Shown here in pieces: positions 18,430 to 45,239 of a stretch of DNA of 64,000 nt (position 1 is its first letter; each line of letters opens with the position of its first letter). The notes under the pieces were generated by a model. That model was not told the origin of the DNA. It saw only the letters and a list, made by a program, of their open reading frames with translations, and did no database searches. Origin of the DNA: an uncultured virus (IMG/VR IMGVR_UViG_3300021376_000011) (taxonomy: Duplodnaviria > Heunggongvirae > Uroviricota > Caudoviricetes); IMG/VR virus record IMGVR_UViG_3300021376_000011. The stretch is one strand, 5' to 3'. A program made the translations under genes and the position numbers.

Positions 18430-18458
18430 ATTACAAATATACTGAAAAATTGTACAAT

Positions 18459-18487
18459 AAAAAAGGGGGACTAATGTCCCCCTTTCT
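18459..18487 (-). terminator. Intrinsic terminator of the major capsid gene
   Basis: GGGGGAC-TAAT-GTCCCCC hairpin with a U-tract on the minus strand, about 20 nt past the gp23 stop. Confidence 0.85.
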
Positions 18488-18505
18488 ATTATGAGATAGT
18501 TATGA

Positions 18506-20269
18506 TTATCTCAAGGTGTCAAGACTAAATGTAGACAAACCACTTACGTTTACCACACCAAAATAACGGTTGTTAACCATTTTCTTAGCGTATCTGGTCA
18601 TAATACCTTTGATTGGTGTAAAGTTGAATGGATTGTACATTGTAGGTGTTAATTGTAATGGAACGTATGGTGCGTAAATATAACCAGCGTCCAACAATGA
18701 TTTACCTTTGTGACCGATAACAACCTTACCAGCTGGTAAGTATGGGTCACGGTACACTTGATAACGACCTGCTAAAGAACCGATTTTCTCGATACCCATG
18801 TTATATTGGTCTTGCTCAGGAGCCGCGTTTGAAACGTGGAAGTATTCCAAGTCGTCAAATACTGCAGATACCTCAGAAGATACAACAATCCAGTTAGCTC
18901 CACCTCTTAAGGTAGTTTTATGGATTTGAGCTGAGATTTGGTTAATTTTGGTAACCAATGTTTGGTTCCAGTCTTTTTGAGTGTAACCAGCGAATGATGA
19001 ACCATCGTTACCGTATCTCCATTCGTTGTAGTCCCACTTAGATGTCCAAGCGGCACCTTTACGAATGTCACGAAGGATTTCACGGTCGATTTCTGCTGCG
19101 ATTTGCTCAGACAATAAAGCTGTCAATTCAGCTTCAGCATCGATGTTGTGGAATGCACTTACGTCTTGTGCTAATTCAGGAGACCAGCTAGCTCTCAATT
19201 TTCTTTCAGTTACAGAAACTGTTACTGACTCAAGGTCGAAAGATACTTCACCGATTTCTTCTTCGAATTCTAATGAATTGTATTCTCTCCAACTTACCTT
19301 AATGTCACTCGCCGCTAATGATGAACCAGCAACTGTGTAATCTGTAAAACCTGTTGTTACACCGTTGTACTTTTGTAAGTCGATAGATAAGTAAATAACT
19401 CCATCAGCGTCACAAACGTTTGTGAATTTACCTGTTCTACCACTGTCTTTAGAACCGTACTCTACAATGCCTTTACCGTATTTTTGAGTTACTACGCTGA
19501 AAGGAATATTAGCGGCTGCAGTAGCACCTAAGTGAGTATATAACGAACTATCAAGACCTGATAAAGTGTAAACAGTTAATGATGCTAAGAACTCTTCAGT
19601 ATCCATGACATGACCATTAGGGCCGGAAAGTTTACTAGCACCTTCGTAAGTTGTAAAACCTGAAATTTTAGCAATTACACTTGATACTGTGTTACCTGTA
19701 GCAATAGCCGCTTGAGTTGAAGCTACGCCGTTACTAAATGTAACAAATTCAATTGTTGAGCCAGTAATTGTTGCAAAAGTACCTTTTGAGTAGTCAAACA
19801 AACCAGAATCAACTGAATCACTCGCTTCGTAGAAACGGTCATACAAGTTGTTACCAGTGTAACCAACGGCTGGGTCGGTATCGGTTGTGTTTGGGAAACC
19901 GAATGGTTGACGGTGTGCGTTTGCCGATGTTCTATCTTGAATTTTAGGTACAAAGTAGAACAATTTACCGATAGGTAAGTTCATTGCTTGTACGGATACG
20001 ATGTCGTTCGCTAACAATTTAGAGAAAACACGACGGATAATAGGGAATACTACAGTTTCAAATGAACCTGAAGCATCGGCTACAGCCGCTTCGTTGATTA
20101 GGTATGAAGCTTGGTTTTCATACAATTGTGCGATGTTGTCTTTTTGGTGACCGTTAAGACCCTCAAGGAATCCTAAGTCATCCCATTTTTTAATGGTATC
20201 TTCTTTGATAACACGGAGGTGTTTTAATCCAATGTTACCAACCATACCAGATTCTAATAATGCTCCCAT
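18506..20269 (-). CDS. Major capsid protein (T4 gp23-like)
   Basis: DIVSVQAMNLPIG, RKLRASWSPELAQD, AEAELTALLSEQIAAEIDREI, YAPYVPL...GIMTRY. Confidence 0.97.
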   Translation of the reverse strand: MGALLESGMVGNIGLKHLRVIKEDTIKKWDDLGFLEGLNGHQKDNIAQLYENQASYLINEAAVADASGSFETVVFPIIRRVFSKLLANDIVSVQAMNLPIGKLFYFVPKIQDRTSANAHRQPFGFPNTTDTDPAVGYTGNNLYDRFYEASDSVDSGLFDYSKGTFATITGSTIEFVTFSNGVASTQAAIATGNTVSSVIAKISGFTTYEGASKLSGPNGHVMDTEEFLASLTVYTLSGLDSSLYTHLGATAAANIPFSVVTQKYGKGIVEYGSKDSGRTGKFTNVCDADGVIYLSIDLQKYNGVTTGFTDYTVAGSSLAASDIKVSWREYNSLEFEEEIGEVSFDLESVTVSVTERKLRASWSPELAQDVSAFHNIDAEAELTALLSEQIAAEIDREILRDIRKGAAWTSKWDYNEWRYGNDGSSFAGYTQKDWNQTLVTKINQISAQIHKTTLRGGANWIVVSSEVSAVFDDLEYFHVSNAAPEQDQYNMGIEKIGSLAGRYQVYRDPYLPAGKVVIGHKGKSLLDAGYIYAPYVPLQLTPTMYNPFNFTPIKGIMTRYAKKMVNNRYFGVVNVSGLSTFSLDTLR

Positions 20270-34772: not shown

Positions 34773-35186
34773 ATGGAATATACAAAAGATTTGATATTAG
34801 TTAGGGGTTTACCCGGCTCGGGTAAATCCACTTTAGGTGAGGTCATTCTTTATACCCCAAATAATCCAATGAAACCATTGTCGGCGGATGATTTCTTTAC
34901 AGACAAGGAAGGTAACTACAATTTTGACCCAATAAAATTAAGGGAAGCTCATAACGACTGCCAACAAAGGTGTGCAAATTTGATGATGAATAGCGTCGTA
35001 AGAGTTGTTGTGTCAAATACGTTTACCCAAGAATGGGAAATGGAACCATATTTTGAAATGGCGAAAAGATACGGATATCGAATTCACACTATTGTTGTTG
35101 AAAACAGACACGGTGGTGAAAATGTCCACGGAGTACCCTCTGACAAATTAGAGATTATGAAAAATCGTTTTGAAGTAAAACTCTGA
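34773..35186 (+). CDS. P-loop kinase (AAA_33/polynucleotide-kinase-like)
   Basis: LVRGLPGSGKST, SADDFF, AHNDCQ, VVVSNTF, HGVP. Confidence 0.85.
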   Translation: MEYTKDLILVRGLPGSGKSTLGEVILYTPNNPMKPLSADDFFTDKEGNYNFDPIKLREAHNDCQQRCANLMMNSVVRVVVSNTFTQEWEMEPYFEMAKRYGYRIHTIVVENRHGGENVHGVPSDKLEIMKNRFEVKL

Positions 35187-36265
35187 TAGTTAGGTTACAA
35201 AAATACCATGAGGATGGTTTGTTAATAAAACAAACTCACCCCACAAAAGATTTGTGCATATGGAATTATACCCCAAGAGTACAATACGAATCTTTGTGGG
35301 ACGATATTACTATGCAATGTCGTGGACTCGTTACCAATTCAAAAGGCGATGTAATTGCAGAACCGTTTGGTAAGTTCTTTAACTATGAGGAAGTTATTGA
35401 TAAGGACTTAATTCCATGGGACAGTGAATATGTTCACATTCAAGATAAAATGGATGGTTCTCTTGGTATTCTATTCTTTTACGATGGGGAATGGATTATG
35501 TCAACAAGAGGTTCATTTACTTCTGAACAGTCTATCCGTGGTTTTGAAATTTTAAAATCAAAATACAATTTAAATAATTTTGTAAAAGAGGTTACATACC
35601 TATGTGAAATTATTTATCCTGAGAATAGAATTGTTGTAAATTATAATTGTGAAAAAATCACATTCCTTTCTGTAACAACCCCTGAAGGTGAATTGAACTG
35701 GTACACCGCATGTGCAATTTTTAATTCATCAGGTATTTTGGAAGAAGACGTTGTTGGAAGCACAATGGTAACTTTCAATAAAGAAACATTTGACACATAT
35801 AAGAAACTTAATACATCAAACAGTGAAGGTTTTGTTGTAAGATTTTACCCATCAAATTTTAGAATGAAAATTAAATTTGAGGAGTATGTTCGATTACATA
35901 AAATTTTAACCAATGTGTCAAGTAGAGATATTTGGGAATACCTTAAAGAAGATAAATCATTTGATGAGTTACTTGAAAAAGTACCTGATGAGTTTAACAG
36001 TTGGGTGAAAGAAACTGTTAAAGATTTTGTGGTTCGTTATGAAAATATTGAGAAGGAATATCAATGGATATTCAATAAAATACGAAACACTTATTTTGAG
36101 GCACATCAAAAAGAATGTAACCGACGCGAGTTTGCTGAATTAGCAAAAAGATATAACCACCCATCAATATTATTTAATATGTTGGACGGTAAAGAATATA
36201 AAAGTATAATATGGAAAATATTATACCCACCATATACAAAACCATTTAAAAAAGATGAAATATAA
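35183..36265 (+). CDS. RNA ligase (T4 Rnl1 family)
   Basis: QCRGLV, FGKFFN, DKMDGSLG, TRGSF, EIIYPENRIV, EGFV, KIKF; frame is open back to CTG at 35183. Confidence 0.9.
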   Translation: MIVRLQKYHEDGLLIKQTHPTKDLCIWNYTPRVQYESLWDDITMQCRGLVTNSKGDVIAEPFGKFFNYEEVIDKDLIPWDSEYVHIQDKMDGSLGILFFYDGEWIMSTRGSFTSEQSIRGFEILKSKYNLNNFVKEVTYLCEIIYPENRIVVNYNCEKITFLSVTTPEGELNWYTACAIFNSSGILEEDVVGSTMVTFNKETFDTYKKLNTSNSEGFVVRFYPSNFRMKIKFEEYVRLHKILTNVSSRDIWEYLKEDKSFDELLEKVPDEFNSWVKETVKDFVVRYENIEKEYQWIFNKIRNTYFEAHQKECNRREFAELAKRYNHPSILFNMLDGKEYKSIIWKILYPPYTKPFKKDEI

Positions 36266-38130: not shown

Positions 38131-38206
38131 AAGTCTTTTTTTTGTATAATTGTACAATAGTTCAGATTGAACTGAATTTGTTCTTTGACATGTTGGTGAA
38201 ATTGAT

Positions 38207-39697: not shown

Positions 39698-40159
39698 ATG
39701 AAAAAATTTAGAACATTGCACGGAACACTCATAACCGACGTTATAGGTTACATCAAAGATTATTTGGTGGATAAAAACGATATTGAAATATTGATTGGTT
39801 CGGATTCACAATCATTTAGTAATTCTAAAACAGTTTACGGGGTGGTTATTGCTCTTTACACAAAAGGTAAGGGTGCTCACGTATTGTGTACTAAAGACAC
39901 AATACCATTTGAAAAAGATACGTCAAGTAGACTAATGACTGAAGTGTGGAAGGCGGTTGAAGTTGCTGAACACTTGAGAAACAATGGTTTACCAAAAGTC
40001 ACTTGGATTGATATTGACCTTAATCCTGACCCAAAATACAAATCAAATAAGGTTTTAAGACAAGCCGTTGGTTTGGTTGAGGGTATGGGGTATAAAGTGA
40101 GATACAAACACGCGGGGGCTATGATGACCTACAGCGCGAATCATTTGGTGAGGATTTAA
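39698..40159 (+). CDS. RNase H-like YkuK (DUF458) family protein
   Basis: ILIGSDSQ, GKGAHV, RLMTEV, IDIDLN, SANH. Confidence 0.8.
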   Translation: MKKFRTLHGTLITDVIGYIKDYLVDKNDIEILIGSDSQSFSNSKTVYGVVIALYTKGKGAHVLCTKDTIPFEKDTSSRLMTEVWKAVEVAEHLRNNGLPKVTWIDIDLNPDPKYKSNKVLRQAVGLVEGMGYKVRYKHAGAMMTYSANHLVRI

Positions 40160-40256: not shown

Positions 40257-42329
40257 ATGACAACAAGGAATTTAGTTGCGTTTCAAAAAGGTTTGGTCTG
40301 TTCACCAAACGACGGTCAAGATAATAGAATCGCGGTAGCAACCGTTCAATCCCACTTAATGCAATGGGGTTACATGTTAGACGAAGATGCTTTCTTCGCG
40401 TTGTCCAAATCAGAATTATCGTTTATTCAAAACTTCAATCATGAAGTATTGAATCATTTGAAAAATGTAATGGGTGGTAATCGTAATTACCAACCCCTAT
40501 ATAAGAATTTCCCACAAGAAGTGATGGTTATGTCCGACTTCGAATTATACATGAACGCAATCTTGCATTATTGGAGTAATGGTCAATGGGAACCATCAAC
40601 CCACACTTACGAAAAAGAAATCAAGTTTGAAAAAATTAAATACAACTTGATTAAGTATGGTACCTCTGATAGATTCTCAAAAATTTTCACTGACTTAGTG
40701 TCAATCAACACATCATTAACCCCCCAAGACCTTGAGATTGTTAAGTGGTTTGTATCAAGTGGTGAAACATTGATTTTCCCTGACACAATTCCTTTCAAAG
40801 AGAATTTGTGTACACTTGCGGGAATGGGAATCGAGGGACTTCCAGTAAAGACTTCAACCGACGTGTTAAGAATAGCCGTTCATCTTTCAGGTGGAGACAT
40901 TAGTTTACCTAAAGTTCCTGAAAAGGAAATTAGACTAAACAGATGGTCTACCGATAAAGGAGTAAATCCCGAAAGAGAAAAGTTTAAATTCAAGAAATTC
41001 ACTCGTAAAGAGAGGAAGTACATCTTGAATTTACTTGAGAACACAAACTGTGACCCAAGAGAAATGGTTTTAAGAGACCAACGATGGGTTCGTTTAGGTG
41101 AAATCTTACACCCGGGTGAGTATAAAAACCAATTCCCTAAATCTTTTGATGCGTTCAACAAGATTAGAAACGAGAAAGTAAAATCTTGGTTCTCCCTTGT
41201 AGATGAGGGATTCAAAAAAAGTTTGGAGAATGGTTTGAGAGTATTGTCTCAAAGACCCGGTGAATTCTCTCGTCGATTAGATTGGTTGGTTCGTACATAT
41301 CCACAAGATATTGAAACAATTATGAAATTATTCGGAGAAGCGGTAAAAGGTACATCAAACAAAGTATTGTTTGAGGTTTACACTCACTTTGAAGGTCGTA
41401 CTGAACCTAAAACAAATAGGTCAGTTATGATTAAAGGAGCGAGAAAACGTACCGAATTACCATCACTACAAGCAATCCCTAAAGAGATTGTGGAAACCAT
41501 CCACTCTAAATTATTCGAAACTCTTAGAGATAAGTTTTCGGTAATGGATTCTTTAGGTAACTGTTGGATTGATGAGGAATTAAAAAAGATTCCTTTACCA
41601 ACCAACATGAGAAGTATGAACTTCTCAACTAAACCTACCATCAGAGGTCAACGAGTTCCGCTCGATAACCCCGATGCAAAAGTTATCAGACCATTTATTC
41701 ATTGGATGGATAAACGTGGTTCTGAAGACTTGGATTTAAGTGTTACGTTTGTTGGTGAAAAAGTGTCAGAAGTACTATCTTTCAGTAACTTGAGAGTTGG
41801 TAACTCTGTTCACTCGGGGGACGTGAGACATAGACAGGGTCCTTGTGCGGAGTACATCGACATCGATATTCAAGATGGATTAAATCGTGGATTCAAGTAC
41901 GCGGTTATTGACGTAAGAAACTTCAATGGCGGTAGTTTAAGTTCACTTGAAACATCCTTTGGTATCATGGAGAGAGAACATCCTGAATCAAACACGACAT
42001 GGTTACCTGAGACAATTTCAAATTGTCAATCATTAGAATCTGAGTCGTCAAACACTTTGATTGCAATTATTGACTTAGAAACCAAAGAGTACATCATGTT
42101 GGACATTGATTCAAGTGGTTTTGTAACCGCGAGGAGCGACTTCAATAACACCTTTAAAGTAATTCAACAATACGCTGAATTACCAAAAGTAAGTGTTTAT
42201 GACCTTATTCTTCTACACGTAGAAGGTCGAGGAAAACAAGTTACCCTTGACGAGAATGTGGATACACATTTCAAGTACGAGGACTTCTGTTACTCTTATG
42301 AAGAGACAGGTAAATTGATGGGTGTCTAA
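40257..42329 (+). CDS. Large protein with C-terminal TerD-like domain (resembles the MXAN_6230/SCO0854-type family but lacks the RING)
   Basis: PLYKNFP, FKENL, TSTDVLR, RPGEFSRRLD, then W...DLDLS...HSGD...AEYIDID. Confidence 0.65.
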   Translation: MTTRNLVAFQKGLVCSPNDGQDNRIAVATVQSHLMQWGYMLDEDAFFALSKSELSFIQNFNHEVLNHLKNVMGGNRNYQPLYKNFPQEVMVMSDFELYMNAILHYWSNGQWEPSTHTYEKEIKFEKIKYNLIKYGTSDRFSKIFTDLVSINTSLTPQDLEIVKWFVSSGETLIFPDTIPFKENLCTLAGMGIEGLPVKTSTDVLRIAVHLSGGDISLPKVPEKEIRLNRWSTDKGVNPEREKFKFKKFTRKERKYILNLLENTNCDPREMVLRDQRWVRLGEILHPGEYKNQFPKSFDAFNKIRNEKVKSWFSLVDEGFKKSLENGLRVLSQRPGEFSRRLDWLVRTYPQDIETIMKLFGEAVKGTSNKVLFEVYTHFEGRTEPKTNRSVMIKGARKRTELPSLQAIPKEIVETIHSKLFETLRDKFSVMDSLGNCWIDEELKKIPLPTNMRSMNFSTKPTIRGQRVPLDNPDAKVIRPFIHWMDKRGSEDLDLSVTFVGEKVSEVLSFSNLRVGNSVHSGDVRHRQGPCAEYIDIDIQDGLNRGFKYAVIDVRNFNGGSLSSLETSFGIMEREHPESNTTWLPETISNCQSLESESSNTLIAIIDLETKEYIMLDIDSSGFVTARSDFNNTFKVIQQYAELPKVSVYDLILLHVEGRGKQVTLDENVDTHFKYEDFCYSYEETGKLMGV

Positions 42330-42357
42330 ACTCACCCATTAGTTCTTTGAAATATTA

Positions 42358-42776
42358 TATGTGGCTATGTGAGCCATTGAGAGGATAGTCAACTGACCAT
42401 CACATCAAACCACGGAGTGGTTCTGTTTTGGTCCTTAGCGGTGACAAAAGTATCAATGCAAACGTCTTACTTCTAACAAACAACTATCAGATACGAAAAC
42501 CAGACACACAATTTCCACATAACTTCTTAGACGGCTATGTATTGGGTTACTTCTGCTAGGGGACTAATGTCCCCCCTTCTATAACAATTATATGTTACAT
42601 TACCCGTACTTTTTCCGTCAATCATATTGAGTGGCTATCTATCAACTTACTTCTAAATTTTAAGCAAAAAATCAAAAATTAGTTGTAGTCTTTCCACTTT
42701 TAAAACACACATGGATATGTGTTCAGTTATTTCTACTTTGACCGATAATCAAAACAATTATTGACACAGTTTCCAT
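42358..42776 (+). ncRNA. Array of four related structured RNAs
   Basis: Each unit reads stem-GG-(C/A)TA-stem-TTA(C/T)TTCT-variable loop-stem-TTT-CC-stem, with compensatory changes; units at 42358-42521, 42530-42619, 42629-42699, 42711-42776. Confidence 0.75.
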
Positions 42777-42817
42777 TTTTTAAAAACAACAAAATAAATA
42801 ACATAAAAACAACAATT

Positions 42818-43264
42818 ATGGCAACAAAAACAACTGACCAGAAAGTAAAAGAACTATTCGATTTAGTTCAAAGTAAAAAATTAGCAATTGAAAAAGCTGA
42901 AAGACCTTGTTGGAAAACCAGCGGTAACTTTGGTTATTCAGCGAATTCCGCACATGACAGGACATCAATTCCAACTATCACAGATGTACGTAAAATCGTA
43001 GAGATGTACGCATTTCTGATGGAAAGAAAAGATAAATCCGAAACCGCAGCCAAAGAACTTGGCGTAAACTACAAATTCACATGGTTAGGATTTACTGTCG
43101 ATGAATGGAAAGATGATTTTCAAACAAGAGTAAATCAAATTTTAATTCAAGAAAAACGTAAAGAACTTTCTGAAATTGAATCTCGTTTGAATTCATTAAT
43201 TTCACCCGAGATAAGAGTACAAATGGAATTGGAAGCAATCACGGAGTTACTTAACGAAAAGTAA
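42818..43264 (+). CDS. Hypothetical coiled-coil protein
   Basis: MATKTTDQKVKEL...; ATG 42818 preferred because the 42761 start lies inside RNA unit 4. Confidence 0.7.
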   Translation: MATKTTDQKVKELFDLVQSKKLAIEKAERPCWKTSGNFGYSANSAHDRTSIPTITDVRKIVEMYAFLMERKDKSETAAKELGVNYKFTWLGFTVDEWKDDFQTRVNQILIQEKRKELSEIESRLNSLISPEIRVQMELEAITELLNEK

Positions 43265-43321
43265 TTTCTTGGTTTTTTAAACCAAGTGGTGGAGTCGAAC
43301 CGAGAAACCGGTCGTCCTAAA

Positions 43322-43352
43322 AAGGGGTTGGGTGACTAACCCCTTCTTTTTT
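43322..43352 (+). terminator. Intrinsic terminator
   Basis: AAGGGGTTGG-GTGA-CTAACCCCTT plus U-tract. Confidence 0.8.
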
Positions 43353-43380
43353 AAACATATTTTTTGATATATTTACAAAT

Positions 43381-44100
43381 ATGAGAATAGTATGTATTTC
43401 TGACACCCACTCTTTACACAATGGTATGTTGTATAACATACCACAGGGAGATATTTTGATACACTCAGGAGATTGCACAAATGTCGGACGACAAAATGAT
43501 GTTCGTGATTTTATTAATTGGTTTCAAAATATACAAGGATTTACCCATAAAATTTTCATTGCAGGTAACCACGATTTTGCGTTTCAAAGAAAACCAACAT
43601 GGTTAAATCTTTACATAGACCCATCAATTCTCACAGAAAATAATGTTACTTATTTGGAAGATGGTGAGTTGGAAATTATTAGTTCAGAATTCTCAAGACC
43701 AATAAAAATTTATGGTTCTCCATGGCAACCTGAATTTTTTGATTGGGCATTTAATTTACCAAGAAACGGTGAGGTGTTAAAAGAAAAATGGGACTCAATC
43801 CCAAATAATACCGATATCTTAATAACACATGGTCCACCACATGGAATTAGAGATTTTACACCCAATAATTTACAGGTCGGATGTGAACTTTTAAGAGAGC
43901 GTGTTGAAGTTTTAAAACCACTTTTACATGTTTTTGGTCACATACATGGTGCATATGGTGTTGCAATGATTGGCGATACAGTATTTGCTAACGCATCAAC
44001 TTGTACAGAAAGGTATCGACCAATAAATAAACCATTAGTTTTTGATTTAATCGAAAATGATGGTATATTTACAATAAATTATATAGACGAAGAAAATTAA
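43381..44100 (+). CDS. Metallophosphoesterase (calcineurin-like)
   Basis: ISDTH, HSGD, AGNHD, THGPP, FGHIH. Confidence 0.92.
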   Translation: MRIVCISDTHSLHNGMLYNIPQGDILIHSGDCTNVGRQNDVRDFINWFQNIQGFTHKIFIAGNHDFAFQRKPTWLNLYIDPSILTENNVTYLEDGELEIISSEFSRPIKIYGSPWQPEFFDWAFNLPRNGEVLKEKWDSIPNNTDILITHGPPHGIRDFTPNNLQVGCELLRERVEVLKPLLHVFGHIHGAYGVAMIGDTVFANASTCTERYRPINKPLVFDLIENDGIFTINYIDEEN

Positions 44101-44127
44101 CTATCTTTGTCTTGTTCTTTGACTTAT

Positions 44128-44703
44128 GGGGGTGTATGGAATTGATTGGCGTTGATATGGTAAATGGGCACGTAGTCGGATGTCATCTACGACTTTAATC
44201 CACGGTGGTAAATTTTAAACGGCAACGTTTATAACCAAATGGAAGTAGCAGGTCTTCTTGCGACTTCTAAAGTTGCAGCCTAATTGGTTGTAACTAACGG
44301 GTCGACGGACAGATAACCTTGGAACAGAAGTCCTTGTAGGGTGTGGTTTCTATCCTAAAAGAAACAAAGTGGAAGATTAGTTCTCAGTAAACCGAACCAC
44401 TTTAAAATAAGGGAATTGTGAATTTCGGAGTATTAGAAAATACTGTCCTAAACGTGTAGTCCATTTATTGTATTGCGAGCAAGACGCGGGTTTTTAATCG
44501 AGCCCCTTCATATCGTGAGATATGTCGAAAATCGGATGAACTCAGGGGAAGTCTTTTAGATAATCCTGAGCCAAGCCTGATAGGAACAGGAAGGTGCAGA
44601 GACTAGTGGGTGATAGACGCTTCTATCGTAATACCACATTAGCGTCCGACATCTCGTTGAGATGATGATATAGTCCAATAATTGTCGAAACCCGCCACCT
44701 CCA
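44128..44703 (+). ncRNA. ssrA: tmRNA, interrupted by a group I intron
   Basis: GGGGGTG/CACCTCC-A acceptor with G3:U70; tag ORF 44221-44283 GNVYNQMEVAGLLATSKVAA*; T-arm GCGGGT|TCGAAACCCGC restored by removing 44492-44684. Confidence 0.9.
44492..44684 (+). mobile_element. Group I intron without an ORF (IC3-like core) in the tmRNA T-loop
   Basis: Core elements AATCCTGAGCCAAG, AAGGTGCAGAGACT and GATATAGTCC; exon ends in U, intron ends in G; IGS GCCC pairs the exon GGGU and intron TCGA can pair the 3' exon TCGA. Confidence 0.88.
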
Positions 44704-44717
44704 CATTAAAGGGAACC

Positions 44718-45239
44718 TCAAAAGGGTTCCCTTTTATTTTTAATTAAAATACTAATTAATTCATGAATATACGCATCATCCATTTCATTTTTCATCCAAT
44801 TAATTGCCCTTGAAACCCATCTAACATTTCCTTTAACATAACCTAATTTATTATCTATCCTATCTAAAGACGCAGAATATATTGGATTCTTTTTTATTTT
44901 GGTATATGATGACAACTCTAATTTTATACCACTGAATGGACAAATTCCATTTTGTAAAACCCATTGATTAGACAAATCTTCAATAGTTAAATCAATAATT
45001 TGATTTCTTTTTTTAATATTTCTAAAATGATATTTGAATTTTGAATATTCCCCACCTCTATTATTTGAGTGTCTTTGTATATCGTATCGATTTTTAACGT
45101 TTAATAAATTTTTAGTATTGTTAATACCAACACAATTTCTTGAACAAAAATTAGGTCTATTTAATTTTTTATTACGATTTAATTCAGAATTTGATTTTTC
45201 AAATTCAATCCCACAGCTTGAACAAATACATTTTCCCAT
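44718..45239 (-). CDS. Free-standing putative homing endonuclease (His-Me/HNH-like) with N-terminal Zn ribbon
   Basis: CSSCG...FCSRNC; QNGICPFSG...ASLDRIDNKLGYVKGNVRWVSRAINWMK. Confidence 0.75.
   Translation of the reverse strand: MGKCICSSCGIEFEKSNSELNRNKKLNRPNFCSRNCVGINNTKNLLNVKNRYDIQRHSNNRGGEYSKFKYHFRNIKKRNQIIDLTIEDLSNQWVLQNGICPFSGIKLELSSYTKIKKNPIYSASLDRIDNKLGYVKGNVRWVSRAINWMKNEMDDAYIHELISILIKNKREPF

Follow-up and report, generated by a model that had tools for sequence, protein, structure and literature searches.

The window, i.e., the whole 64-kb stretch of DNA that was analysed (64,000 nucleotides), has a G+C content of about 32% and contains four tRNAs, one group I intron and T4-like nucleotide-metabolism genes. 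Its closest public records are IMG/VR contigs of 134–171 kb, and relatives of the phage reach 288–311 kb at an estimated completeness of 92–93%. The Gp23-type capsid, the T4-like genes and the sizes of the related records therefore identify the source as a T4-like jumbo phage. The features considered here are the major capsid gene with the terminator behind it and a non-coding array that lies between two ORFs on the other strand:

18506–20269, minus strand: major capsid protein gene, Gp23 family (Pfam PF07068, E = 1.3e-75; phrog_138)
18455–18489, minus strand: intrinsic terminator of the capsid gene, the proposed source of the hairpin; called on both strands, folds, and is conserved behind the capsid genes of relatives
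40257–42329, plus strand: upstream ORF of 690 aa (phrog_33734; nearest atlas clusters TerD-like, a lead only)
42330–42817, plus strand: non-coding tandem array of four related modules and their linkers, between two plus-strand ORFs
42363–42474, plus strand: module 1 (U1), GGCTATG ... TCTTACTTCT around a structured domain of ~95 nt, recognised by covariation
42533–42554, plus strand: core of module 2, GGCTAT-N8-TTACTTCT, recognised by motif; the insertion begins 4 nt past its end
42559–42582, plus strand: apparent inserted copy of the capsid terminator hairpin and its 3' flank; 23/24 match, lineage-specific
42559–42574, plus strand: stem-loop GGGGAC/TAAT/GTCCCC within this copy; 6 bp, −12 kcal/mol as RNA, z = −3.04
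42633–42654, plus strand: core of module 3, recognised by motif
42713–42734, plus strand: core of module 4, GGATAT ... TTATTTCT, recognised by motif
42818–43264, plus strand: downstream ORF (148 aa, mostly helical), strongly conserved and invariably located behind the array

Each module of the array is laid out as a TTTCC box, GGCTAY, a variable middle and TTACTTCTA, and successive modules are joined by linkers of about 20 nt. Over 22 nt, the cores share 77% identity with the reference copy, and among 58 distinct units conservation is limited to GGCTAY and TTACTTCTA. Most copies have a middle of 8–9 nt; in some relatives it forms a covarying hairpin, and in module 1 a domain of 95 nt takes its place. 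Module 1, or U1, is a structured RNA of ~112 nt with four helices and invariant unpaired AGGATA and AAAGTA segments. Across 14 distinct sequences, compensatory changes occur in 10 of its 17 pairs, and the share of paired cells is 95.7%, compared with 30–46% in slid controls. U1 occurs in 21 IMG/VR contigs, always at the array locus, and may resemble the small stable RNAs encoded in T4's tRNA cluster. An Rfam search of 42250–42900 returned no family above noise (best E = 8.7), and the fold of the whole array gave a z-score of −1.5.

Several readings of the modules were tried and set aside. The earlier note had described 42555–42602 as the loop of RNA unit 2; the interval is a linker between two tandem sequence modules. 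The simple modules fold no better than shuffled sequence (z = +0.88 and +1.29), and on this ground folded RNA units with loops were rejected. Promoters of the sigma-70 or Bacteroidota type were rejected by eye, since some copies have a covarying domain of 35–95 nt between the two conserved boxes and the motifs are not over-represented elsewhere in the window. Dispersed mobile elements were rejected in view of a single locus per genome: the modules lie at one locus in each of G001, G002, G005 and G007–G011, and are absent from G003 and G004. Neither flanking ORF has a Pfam or PADLOC family, and the model of the 148-aa protein (mean pLDDT 78.6) predicts a four-helix-rich fold for which no PDB fold match was found at E ≤ 0.001.

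Two further observations concern the array. Contigs from three river RNA libraries end at 42527–42529, and one 202-nt contig, X19 (depth ~6), runs to 42527, continues with four letters and returns to 42359. This joint, which occurs in none of the array DNA loci compared, could reflect an RNA of ~172 nt, circular or rearranged, or else a tandem duplication in the DNA of this relative. The word GTTCTTTGA occurs on the plus strand at 38180–38188, 42342–42350 and 44114–44122, i.e., 18 nt upstream of the first tRNA (Leu), 12 nt upstream of U1 (GGCTATG) and 5 nt upstream of the tmRNA. Some modules of relatives are preceded by it too, and over the full window it is not over-represented.

At the array's 3' end, relatives have a tRNA that is canonical except for being interrupted by a module of ~50–56 nt (TTTCY box ... 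GGCTAY-N8-9-TTACTTCT). In six loci (L083, L084, L090, L092, L103 and L104) the host gene is tRNA-Asn(GTT)-like and the module, read by eye, sits between positions 28 and 29 in the anticodon stem. In two others it sits in the anticodon loop, of a tRNA called Gln(TTG) by ARAGORN in L085 and read by eye as Phe(GAA) in L091. The pair CTAAG/CTTAG of the L092 insert is CTTAG/CTAAG in L084. A bulge-helix-bulge intron of the archaeal type was considered, and no such pairing was seen by eye in the folds. The module-bearing tRNAs with assigned coordinates and the tmRNA locus of the window are:

L092, 1299–1422: tRNA-Asn(GTT)-like with module
L103, 1329–1455: tRNA-Asn(GTT)-like with module
L085, 1310–1440: tRNA-Gln(TTG)-like with module
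L091, 1311–1440: tRNA-Phe(GAA)-like with module
Window, 44128–44707, plus strand, with 44482–44694 and 44718–45239, minus strand: tmRNA locus (Rfam tmRNA, E = 2.9e-12, below the gathering score)

The tmRNA gene is apparently split near its 3' end by a group I intron (68.8 bits) and adjoins an HNH endonuclease gene on the opposite strand. ARAGORN called an uninterrupted tmRNA with the tag GNVYNNMEVAGLLATSKVAA in L082 and L083 and none in the window. An RNA-repair-like gene set surrounds the stable-RNA cluster (34773–36265, 39698–40159 and 43381–44100). It comprises an AAA_33 P-loop kinase, a weak match to RNA ligase (PF09414, E = 3e-4), a protein resembling RNase H (PF04308) and a metallophosphoesterase with a match to PDC-S10, a PADLOC candidate family (E = 1.6e-81).

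Within the array, a single linker has a counterpart elsewhere in the window. As the earlier note had claimed, 42559–42582 matches 18466–18489 at 23 of 24 positions: the array stretch is ggggactaatgtccccccttctat and the capsid-side stretch ggggactaatgtccccctttctat, both read on the plus strand, and the sole difference is C/T at position 18. The 16-nt core, allowing up to two mismatches, occurs twice in the 64-kb window against 0.01 expected occurrences, and none of 100 shuffles contained two. When the 488-nt intergenic region was compared with the window using blastn-short, the hairpin match alone exceeded chance (E = 2.5e-5), as judged against the best scores of 30 shuffled queries (24–34 bits); the second-best match was a 14-nt A-rich word (E ~0.1). 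The antisense relation drawn in the earlier note also holds. Because the flanking ORFs (40257–42329 and 42818–43264) are both on the plus strand and the capsid gene is on the minus strand, a plus-strand array transcript would be antisense to the capsid mRNA at its 3' end. The two hairpin copies lie 24,093 nt apart in the window and 22,970 nt apart in G002; since both ends are locally 100% identical, an indel of ~1.1 kb must separate the two records between 18.5 and 42.5 kb.

The capsid-side stretch belongs to a terminator. T4-type phages carry Rho-independent bidirectional terminators downstream of highly expressed late genes, and the capsid copy shows every sequence feature of these elements. 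The matched stretch is separated from the capsid stop codon by 17 nt, and the hairpin (18465–18482) begins 23 nt past the stop codon with a 7-bp GC stem and a 4-nt loop that are followed by TTTTTT on the minus strand. Its folding energy is −19.8 kcal/mol (z = −5.8 on the minus and −4.7 on the plus strand). The terminator scan called the site terminator-like on both strands, with a weaker T-run on the plus strand. The array copy differs from such terminators in that the stem-loop alone is kept, and the A-run and T-run are missing. Thus, both copies have the GC-rich stem-loop of an intrinsic terminator, whereas the U-tract is present on both strands at the capsid site and lacking at the array, where the scan of 42559–42574 called nothing on either strand. 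A sigma-70-like promoter scan of the plus strand beside the array copy called none; the sigma-70 consensus may not be that of the host.

The two copies differ markedly in their distribution. The exact 16-mer lies at the same place behind the capsid gene in relatives with 74–93% DNA identity around that gene, and tblastn places it behind Gp23 homologues in five flank contexts, at 59–99% amino-acid identity. The capsid-side copy is thus old and ancestral, since the exact 16-mer persists behind Gp23 homologues down to 59% amino-acid identity. The array copy is confined to four contigs that are 99.9–100% identical to the window (L029, L043, L048 and L054). We scanned 49 array loci, 28 fetched via the downstream 148-aa ORF and 21 via the structured module, and detected the hairpin (up to three mismatches) in 8, all from these four contigs; it is absent from the other 41. 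The junction after module 2 exists in eight other distinct versions, none of which has the hairpin. G005, the closest relative, which is 89% identical to the window over 2.5 kb, shows a clean 24-nt gap at the insertion site, and a contig from a river metatranscriptome library reads GGGTTACTTCTATCA and then directly 42583, with the hairpin missing. Because it is limited to window-identical contigs and absent from all other junction versions, the array copy is a young, derived insertion in one population. Copy counts agree: allowing two mismatches, the window, G001 and G002 (171 kb) have two copies and G003, G004 (288 kb, 92% complete), G005 and G006 have one, the counts beyond the window being taken from the nearest IMG/VR records.

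All sampled words of 41900–43400 are present in 14 DNA runs, labelled lake water metagenome. The four contigs and these runs may represent one campaign or one population. The presence of the insertion in all of them indicates that it is not deleterious and could be selected. Directly 3' of the insertion, the linker 42583–42615 differs from G005 at ~8 of 34 positions in otherwise near-identical surroundings; it keeps an AACA...TGTT hairpin that is conserved in relatives, with a changed loop.

We consider it likely that 42559–42582 arose as a recent, lineage-specific duplication of the phage's own capsid terminator hairpin, by templated insertion into an array linker. In the closest hairpin-free relative the junction reads GGGTTA-CTTCTAT-CAAAC, and G005 and most relatives have ...GGGTTA CTTCTAT CAA(A)C.... 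In the window the corresponding sequence is GGGTTA-CTTCT-GCTA-GGGGACTAATGTCCCCC-CTTCTAT-AAC. The most likely route would be a short templated insertion, in which microhomology primed a template switch of the polymerase or a patch repair, possibly during the recombination-dependent replication typical of T4-type phages. The TTCTAT flank would have pre-existed at the target and served as microhomology, so that the 17-nt hairpin alone was copied, CTTCT duplicated and four filler bases gained. With TTCTAT already at the target, the single mismatch at position 18 falls exactly at the junction, as a template switch predicts. The more distant relative L094 has TTCTAGCTA|AACAATT at this junction, and by this alignment the event would be a clean 24-nt insertion that includes the flank, an alternative that we rank equal to the 17-nt reading. 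Under both alignments the array sequence is a short templated copy of the capsid terminator. What the data establish is the match itself, that it is derived, that one population alone has it and that relatives offer no parallel; the mechanism, which draws on one junction, and the absence of a regulatory role are what we infer.

At its new site, the copy would give the plus-strand transcript a stable 6-bp GC hairpin without a U-tract. Because it is oriented in the genome like its source, while the region around it is transcribed from the other strand, it became antisense to the capsid mRNA. Arrays of other relatives have GC hairpins or true plus-strand terminators directly after modules; a hairpin at this position is therefore tolerated and possibly useful. 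It may mark or stabilise an RNA 3' end, and neutrality fits the data equally. We take the hairpin to be neutral or, at most, to serve the small RNAs upstream as a 3'-end, pausing or stability element.

The templated duplication has to be weighed against an origin outside this genome, in which the hairpin came from another phage or arose convergently, GGGGACTAATGTCCCC being a generally favoured terminator hairpin in the phage community. An exact-word scan of IMG/VR found this 16-mer in 68 loci (L001–L068) that represent 36 flank contexts, most of them not beside a detectable capsid homologue. In 25 of the 36 contexts A occupies at least five of the eight upstream positions, which yields a hairpin plus U-tract on the opposite strand; this is not expected of a random 16-mer. 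Moreover, with TTCTAT pre-existing at the target, 17 nt alone need explaining. Nevertheless, we regard this origin as unlikely. The capsid terminator is the nearest and sole other copy in the genome, and the array copy agrees with it through the fifth C or, in the alternative alignment, as far as the end of TTCTAT. Across the 36 contexts, this flank occurs solely behind capsid genes of close relatives, save for one TTTTCTAT context with a different stem length. In five loci (L005, L031, L042, L049 and L068) the hairpin lies between homologues of 227-aa and 444-aa head-region genes and not behind the capsid gene. The occurrence of one exact hairpin behind capsid genes diverged to 59%, and in dozens of unrelated contexts, suggests sequence-level selection or horizontal spread.

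The same counts bear on the simpler alternative raised in the earlier note, a dispersed small palindromic element. Within the genome the hairpin is not dispersed: with two copies, or one per record as in G004, it lacks the many copies of a REP/MITE-like or PeSL-like repeat. Across phages it is a widely common terminator hairpin. The generic-element alternative is thus right for the phage community and wrong for this genome.

A regulatory reading, in which plus-strand array RNA pairs through its 24-nt antisense segment with the capsid terminator or 3' UTR and modulates termination, stability or cleavage, the linkers being a store of captured segments, seems to us improbable. The complementarity has the extent expected of an antisense RNA (23/24 nt) and extends to the loop and flank, which are not palindromic. 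Cofolding slightly favours the heteroduplex, with a gain of −6.5 kcal/mol compared with −3.0 kcal/mol for an insert-free control, and the insertion is fixed in the sampled population. The array lies between plus-strand genes and is covered by RNA-library contigs, which come from relatives without the insertion, are unstranded and derive from libraries that may contain DNA, and which do not imply transcription of the stretch itself. These contigs leave 42530–42582 uncovered, a gap that carries no information. On the other side, both partners are locked in stable hairpins with 4-nt loops of A/U only, and for this reason pairing with the capsid mRNA is possible yet marginally favoured. Part of the flank match was probably target sequence that pre-existed. 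The match is carried by one near-clonal lineage alone, no effector-like protein was detected nearby, and the other linkers match nothing in the window above chance.

By the earlier note's own terms the guide reading falls if related phages show no loop–target correspondence, and a correspondence between array and capsid terminator was found in none of six relatives. Three of these have the identical capsid hairpin and an array without it (L002/L092, L014/L094 and L050/L082); the other three (G007, G008 and G009) have different capsid terminators and no copies of them in their arrays. When each relative's own capsid terminator was searched in its array, the best matches were A/T-rich, at most 11 nt long and of E at least 0.02. 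Two other relatives have GC hairpins behind modules, and no second copy of these was found in their genome records, which are 60% and 13% complete. Complementarity is thus neither conserved nor co-varying in related genomes. The suggestion that variable loops act as guides or are captured from phage transcripts stands in one respect, namely that the sequence truly derives from the phage's own capsid terminator (or an identical hairpin); the data give a guide or capture system no support.

A broader version of this idea, which we hold to be very doubtful, is that array linkers take up pieces of phage transcription units, the hairpin being the first instance caught and giving rise to an RNA antisense to the 3' end of the most abundant late mRNA. 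The GGCUAY...UUACUUCUA modules would then constitute a new class of processed RNA (structured, tandem and present in tRNA anticodon arms), maybe excised and rejoined by the nearby phage kinase, ligase and phosphoesterase.

An ancestral hairpin that was deleted in relatives, e.g., between TTCT direct repeats, is highly improbable. The 24-nt difference from G005 is bounded by TTCT...TTCT, a pattern that deletions also leave; against this, deletion needs loss in all eight distinct junction versions, whose capsid-region DNA identity ranges from ~76% to 93%, and retention in one clonal population, and the present identities suggest that the window lineage nests inside hairpin-free clades. Finally, we give practically no credence to an assembly artefact, i.e., a chimeric join at the GC hairpin, given that the same junction occurs in four IMG/VR contigs assembled separately from different samples and that the sampled words were all found in the fourteen DNA runs.

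Templated duplication of the capsid terminator hairpin, our preferred reading, can be compared with several known systems. Reportedly, Arbiol et al. in 2010 dealt with promoter-early stem-loop (PeSL) cassettes of T4-like phages. PeSLs are described as composite terminator/promoter motifs, present in many copies, at which homologous exchange takes place (Comeau, Arbiol and Krisch, 2014, PMC4122927). By that description, they share with our case small terminator-type stem-loops repeated in a T4-type genome and a plastic non-core region with indels. They differ in that here there are two copies, no promoter part appears to have been copied, the hairpin itself was inserted and no gene exchange took place between hairpins. 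Templated insertions of the MMBIR type, through microhomology-mediated template switching, have been described in eukaryotic cells (PMC8421209). As they are depicted in that account, the likeness lies in a patch of 17–26 nt from a distant site of the same genome, bounded on one side by TTCTAT microhomology and on the other by a few bases of filler or duplication. MMBIR is, however, a eukaryotic process, and the phage mechanism is deduced from one junction. The present case suggests that a terminator hairpin can be copied as a short patch (17–24 nt) within a T4-type genome.

CRISPR or guide-RNA arrays resemble the locus in having tandem units and variable spacing stretches, one of which matches the phage's own genome. 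In contrast to such arrays, the repeats are not near-identical and share a 6 + 9 nt motif alone, one linker has an above-chance match in the window, the arrays of the six relatives have none to their own capsid terminators, and neither flanking ORF resembles an effector or processing protein; no cas-like or other effector gene was detected beside the array. As this case shows, a striking self-antisense match need not imply regulation. In type III toxin–antitoxin systems (ToxIN, AbiQ, CptIN), a small ORF is directly preceded, on the same strand, by an RNA array of tandem direct repeats. The array here also directly precedes a small ORF on the same strand; unlike those repeats, its units are ~80 nt long and diverged, and the 148-aa ORF has no Pfam or PADLOC match and no PDB match at E ≤ 0.001, so the family or fold of a ToxN/AbiQ-type endoribonuclease is not found after the repeats.

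The hairpin copy is thus ordinary, and the RNA locus that received it is unusual and the more interesting object. It is an undescribed stable-RNA region that combines a structured RNA without an Rfam family with a bipartite module that interrupts tRNA genes of relatives, and it adjoins tRNAs, an intron-split tmRNA and RNA-repair genes. Short 'enigmatic introns' in tRNA genes have been reported for Lak megaphages of Prevotella (Devoto et al., 2019, PMC6784885). Judged by that report, the two groups are alike in being large phages with likely Bacteroidota hosts, whose tRNA genes carry short conserved insertions and whose non-coding regions are expressed. The likeness is one of description, and the inserted piece here differs from the Lak introns as reported in being a copy of a module that is also tandem-arrayed beside the tRNA. 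The locus thereby makes short phage-tRNA 'introns' testable in a second phage group.
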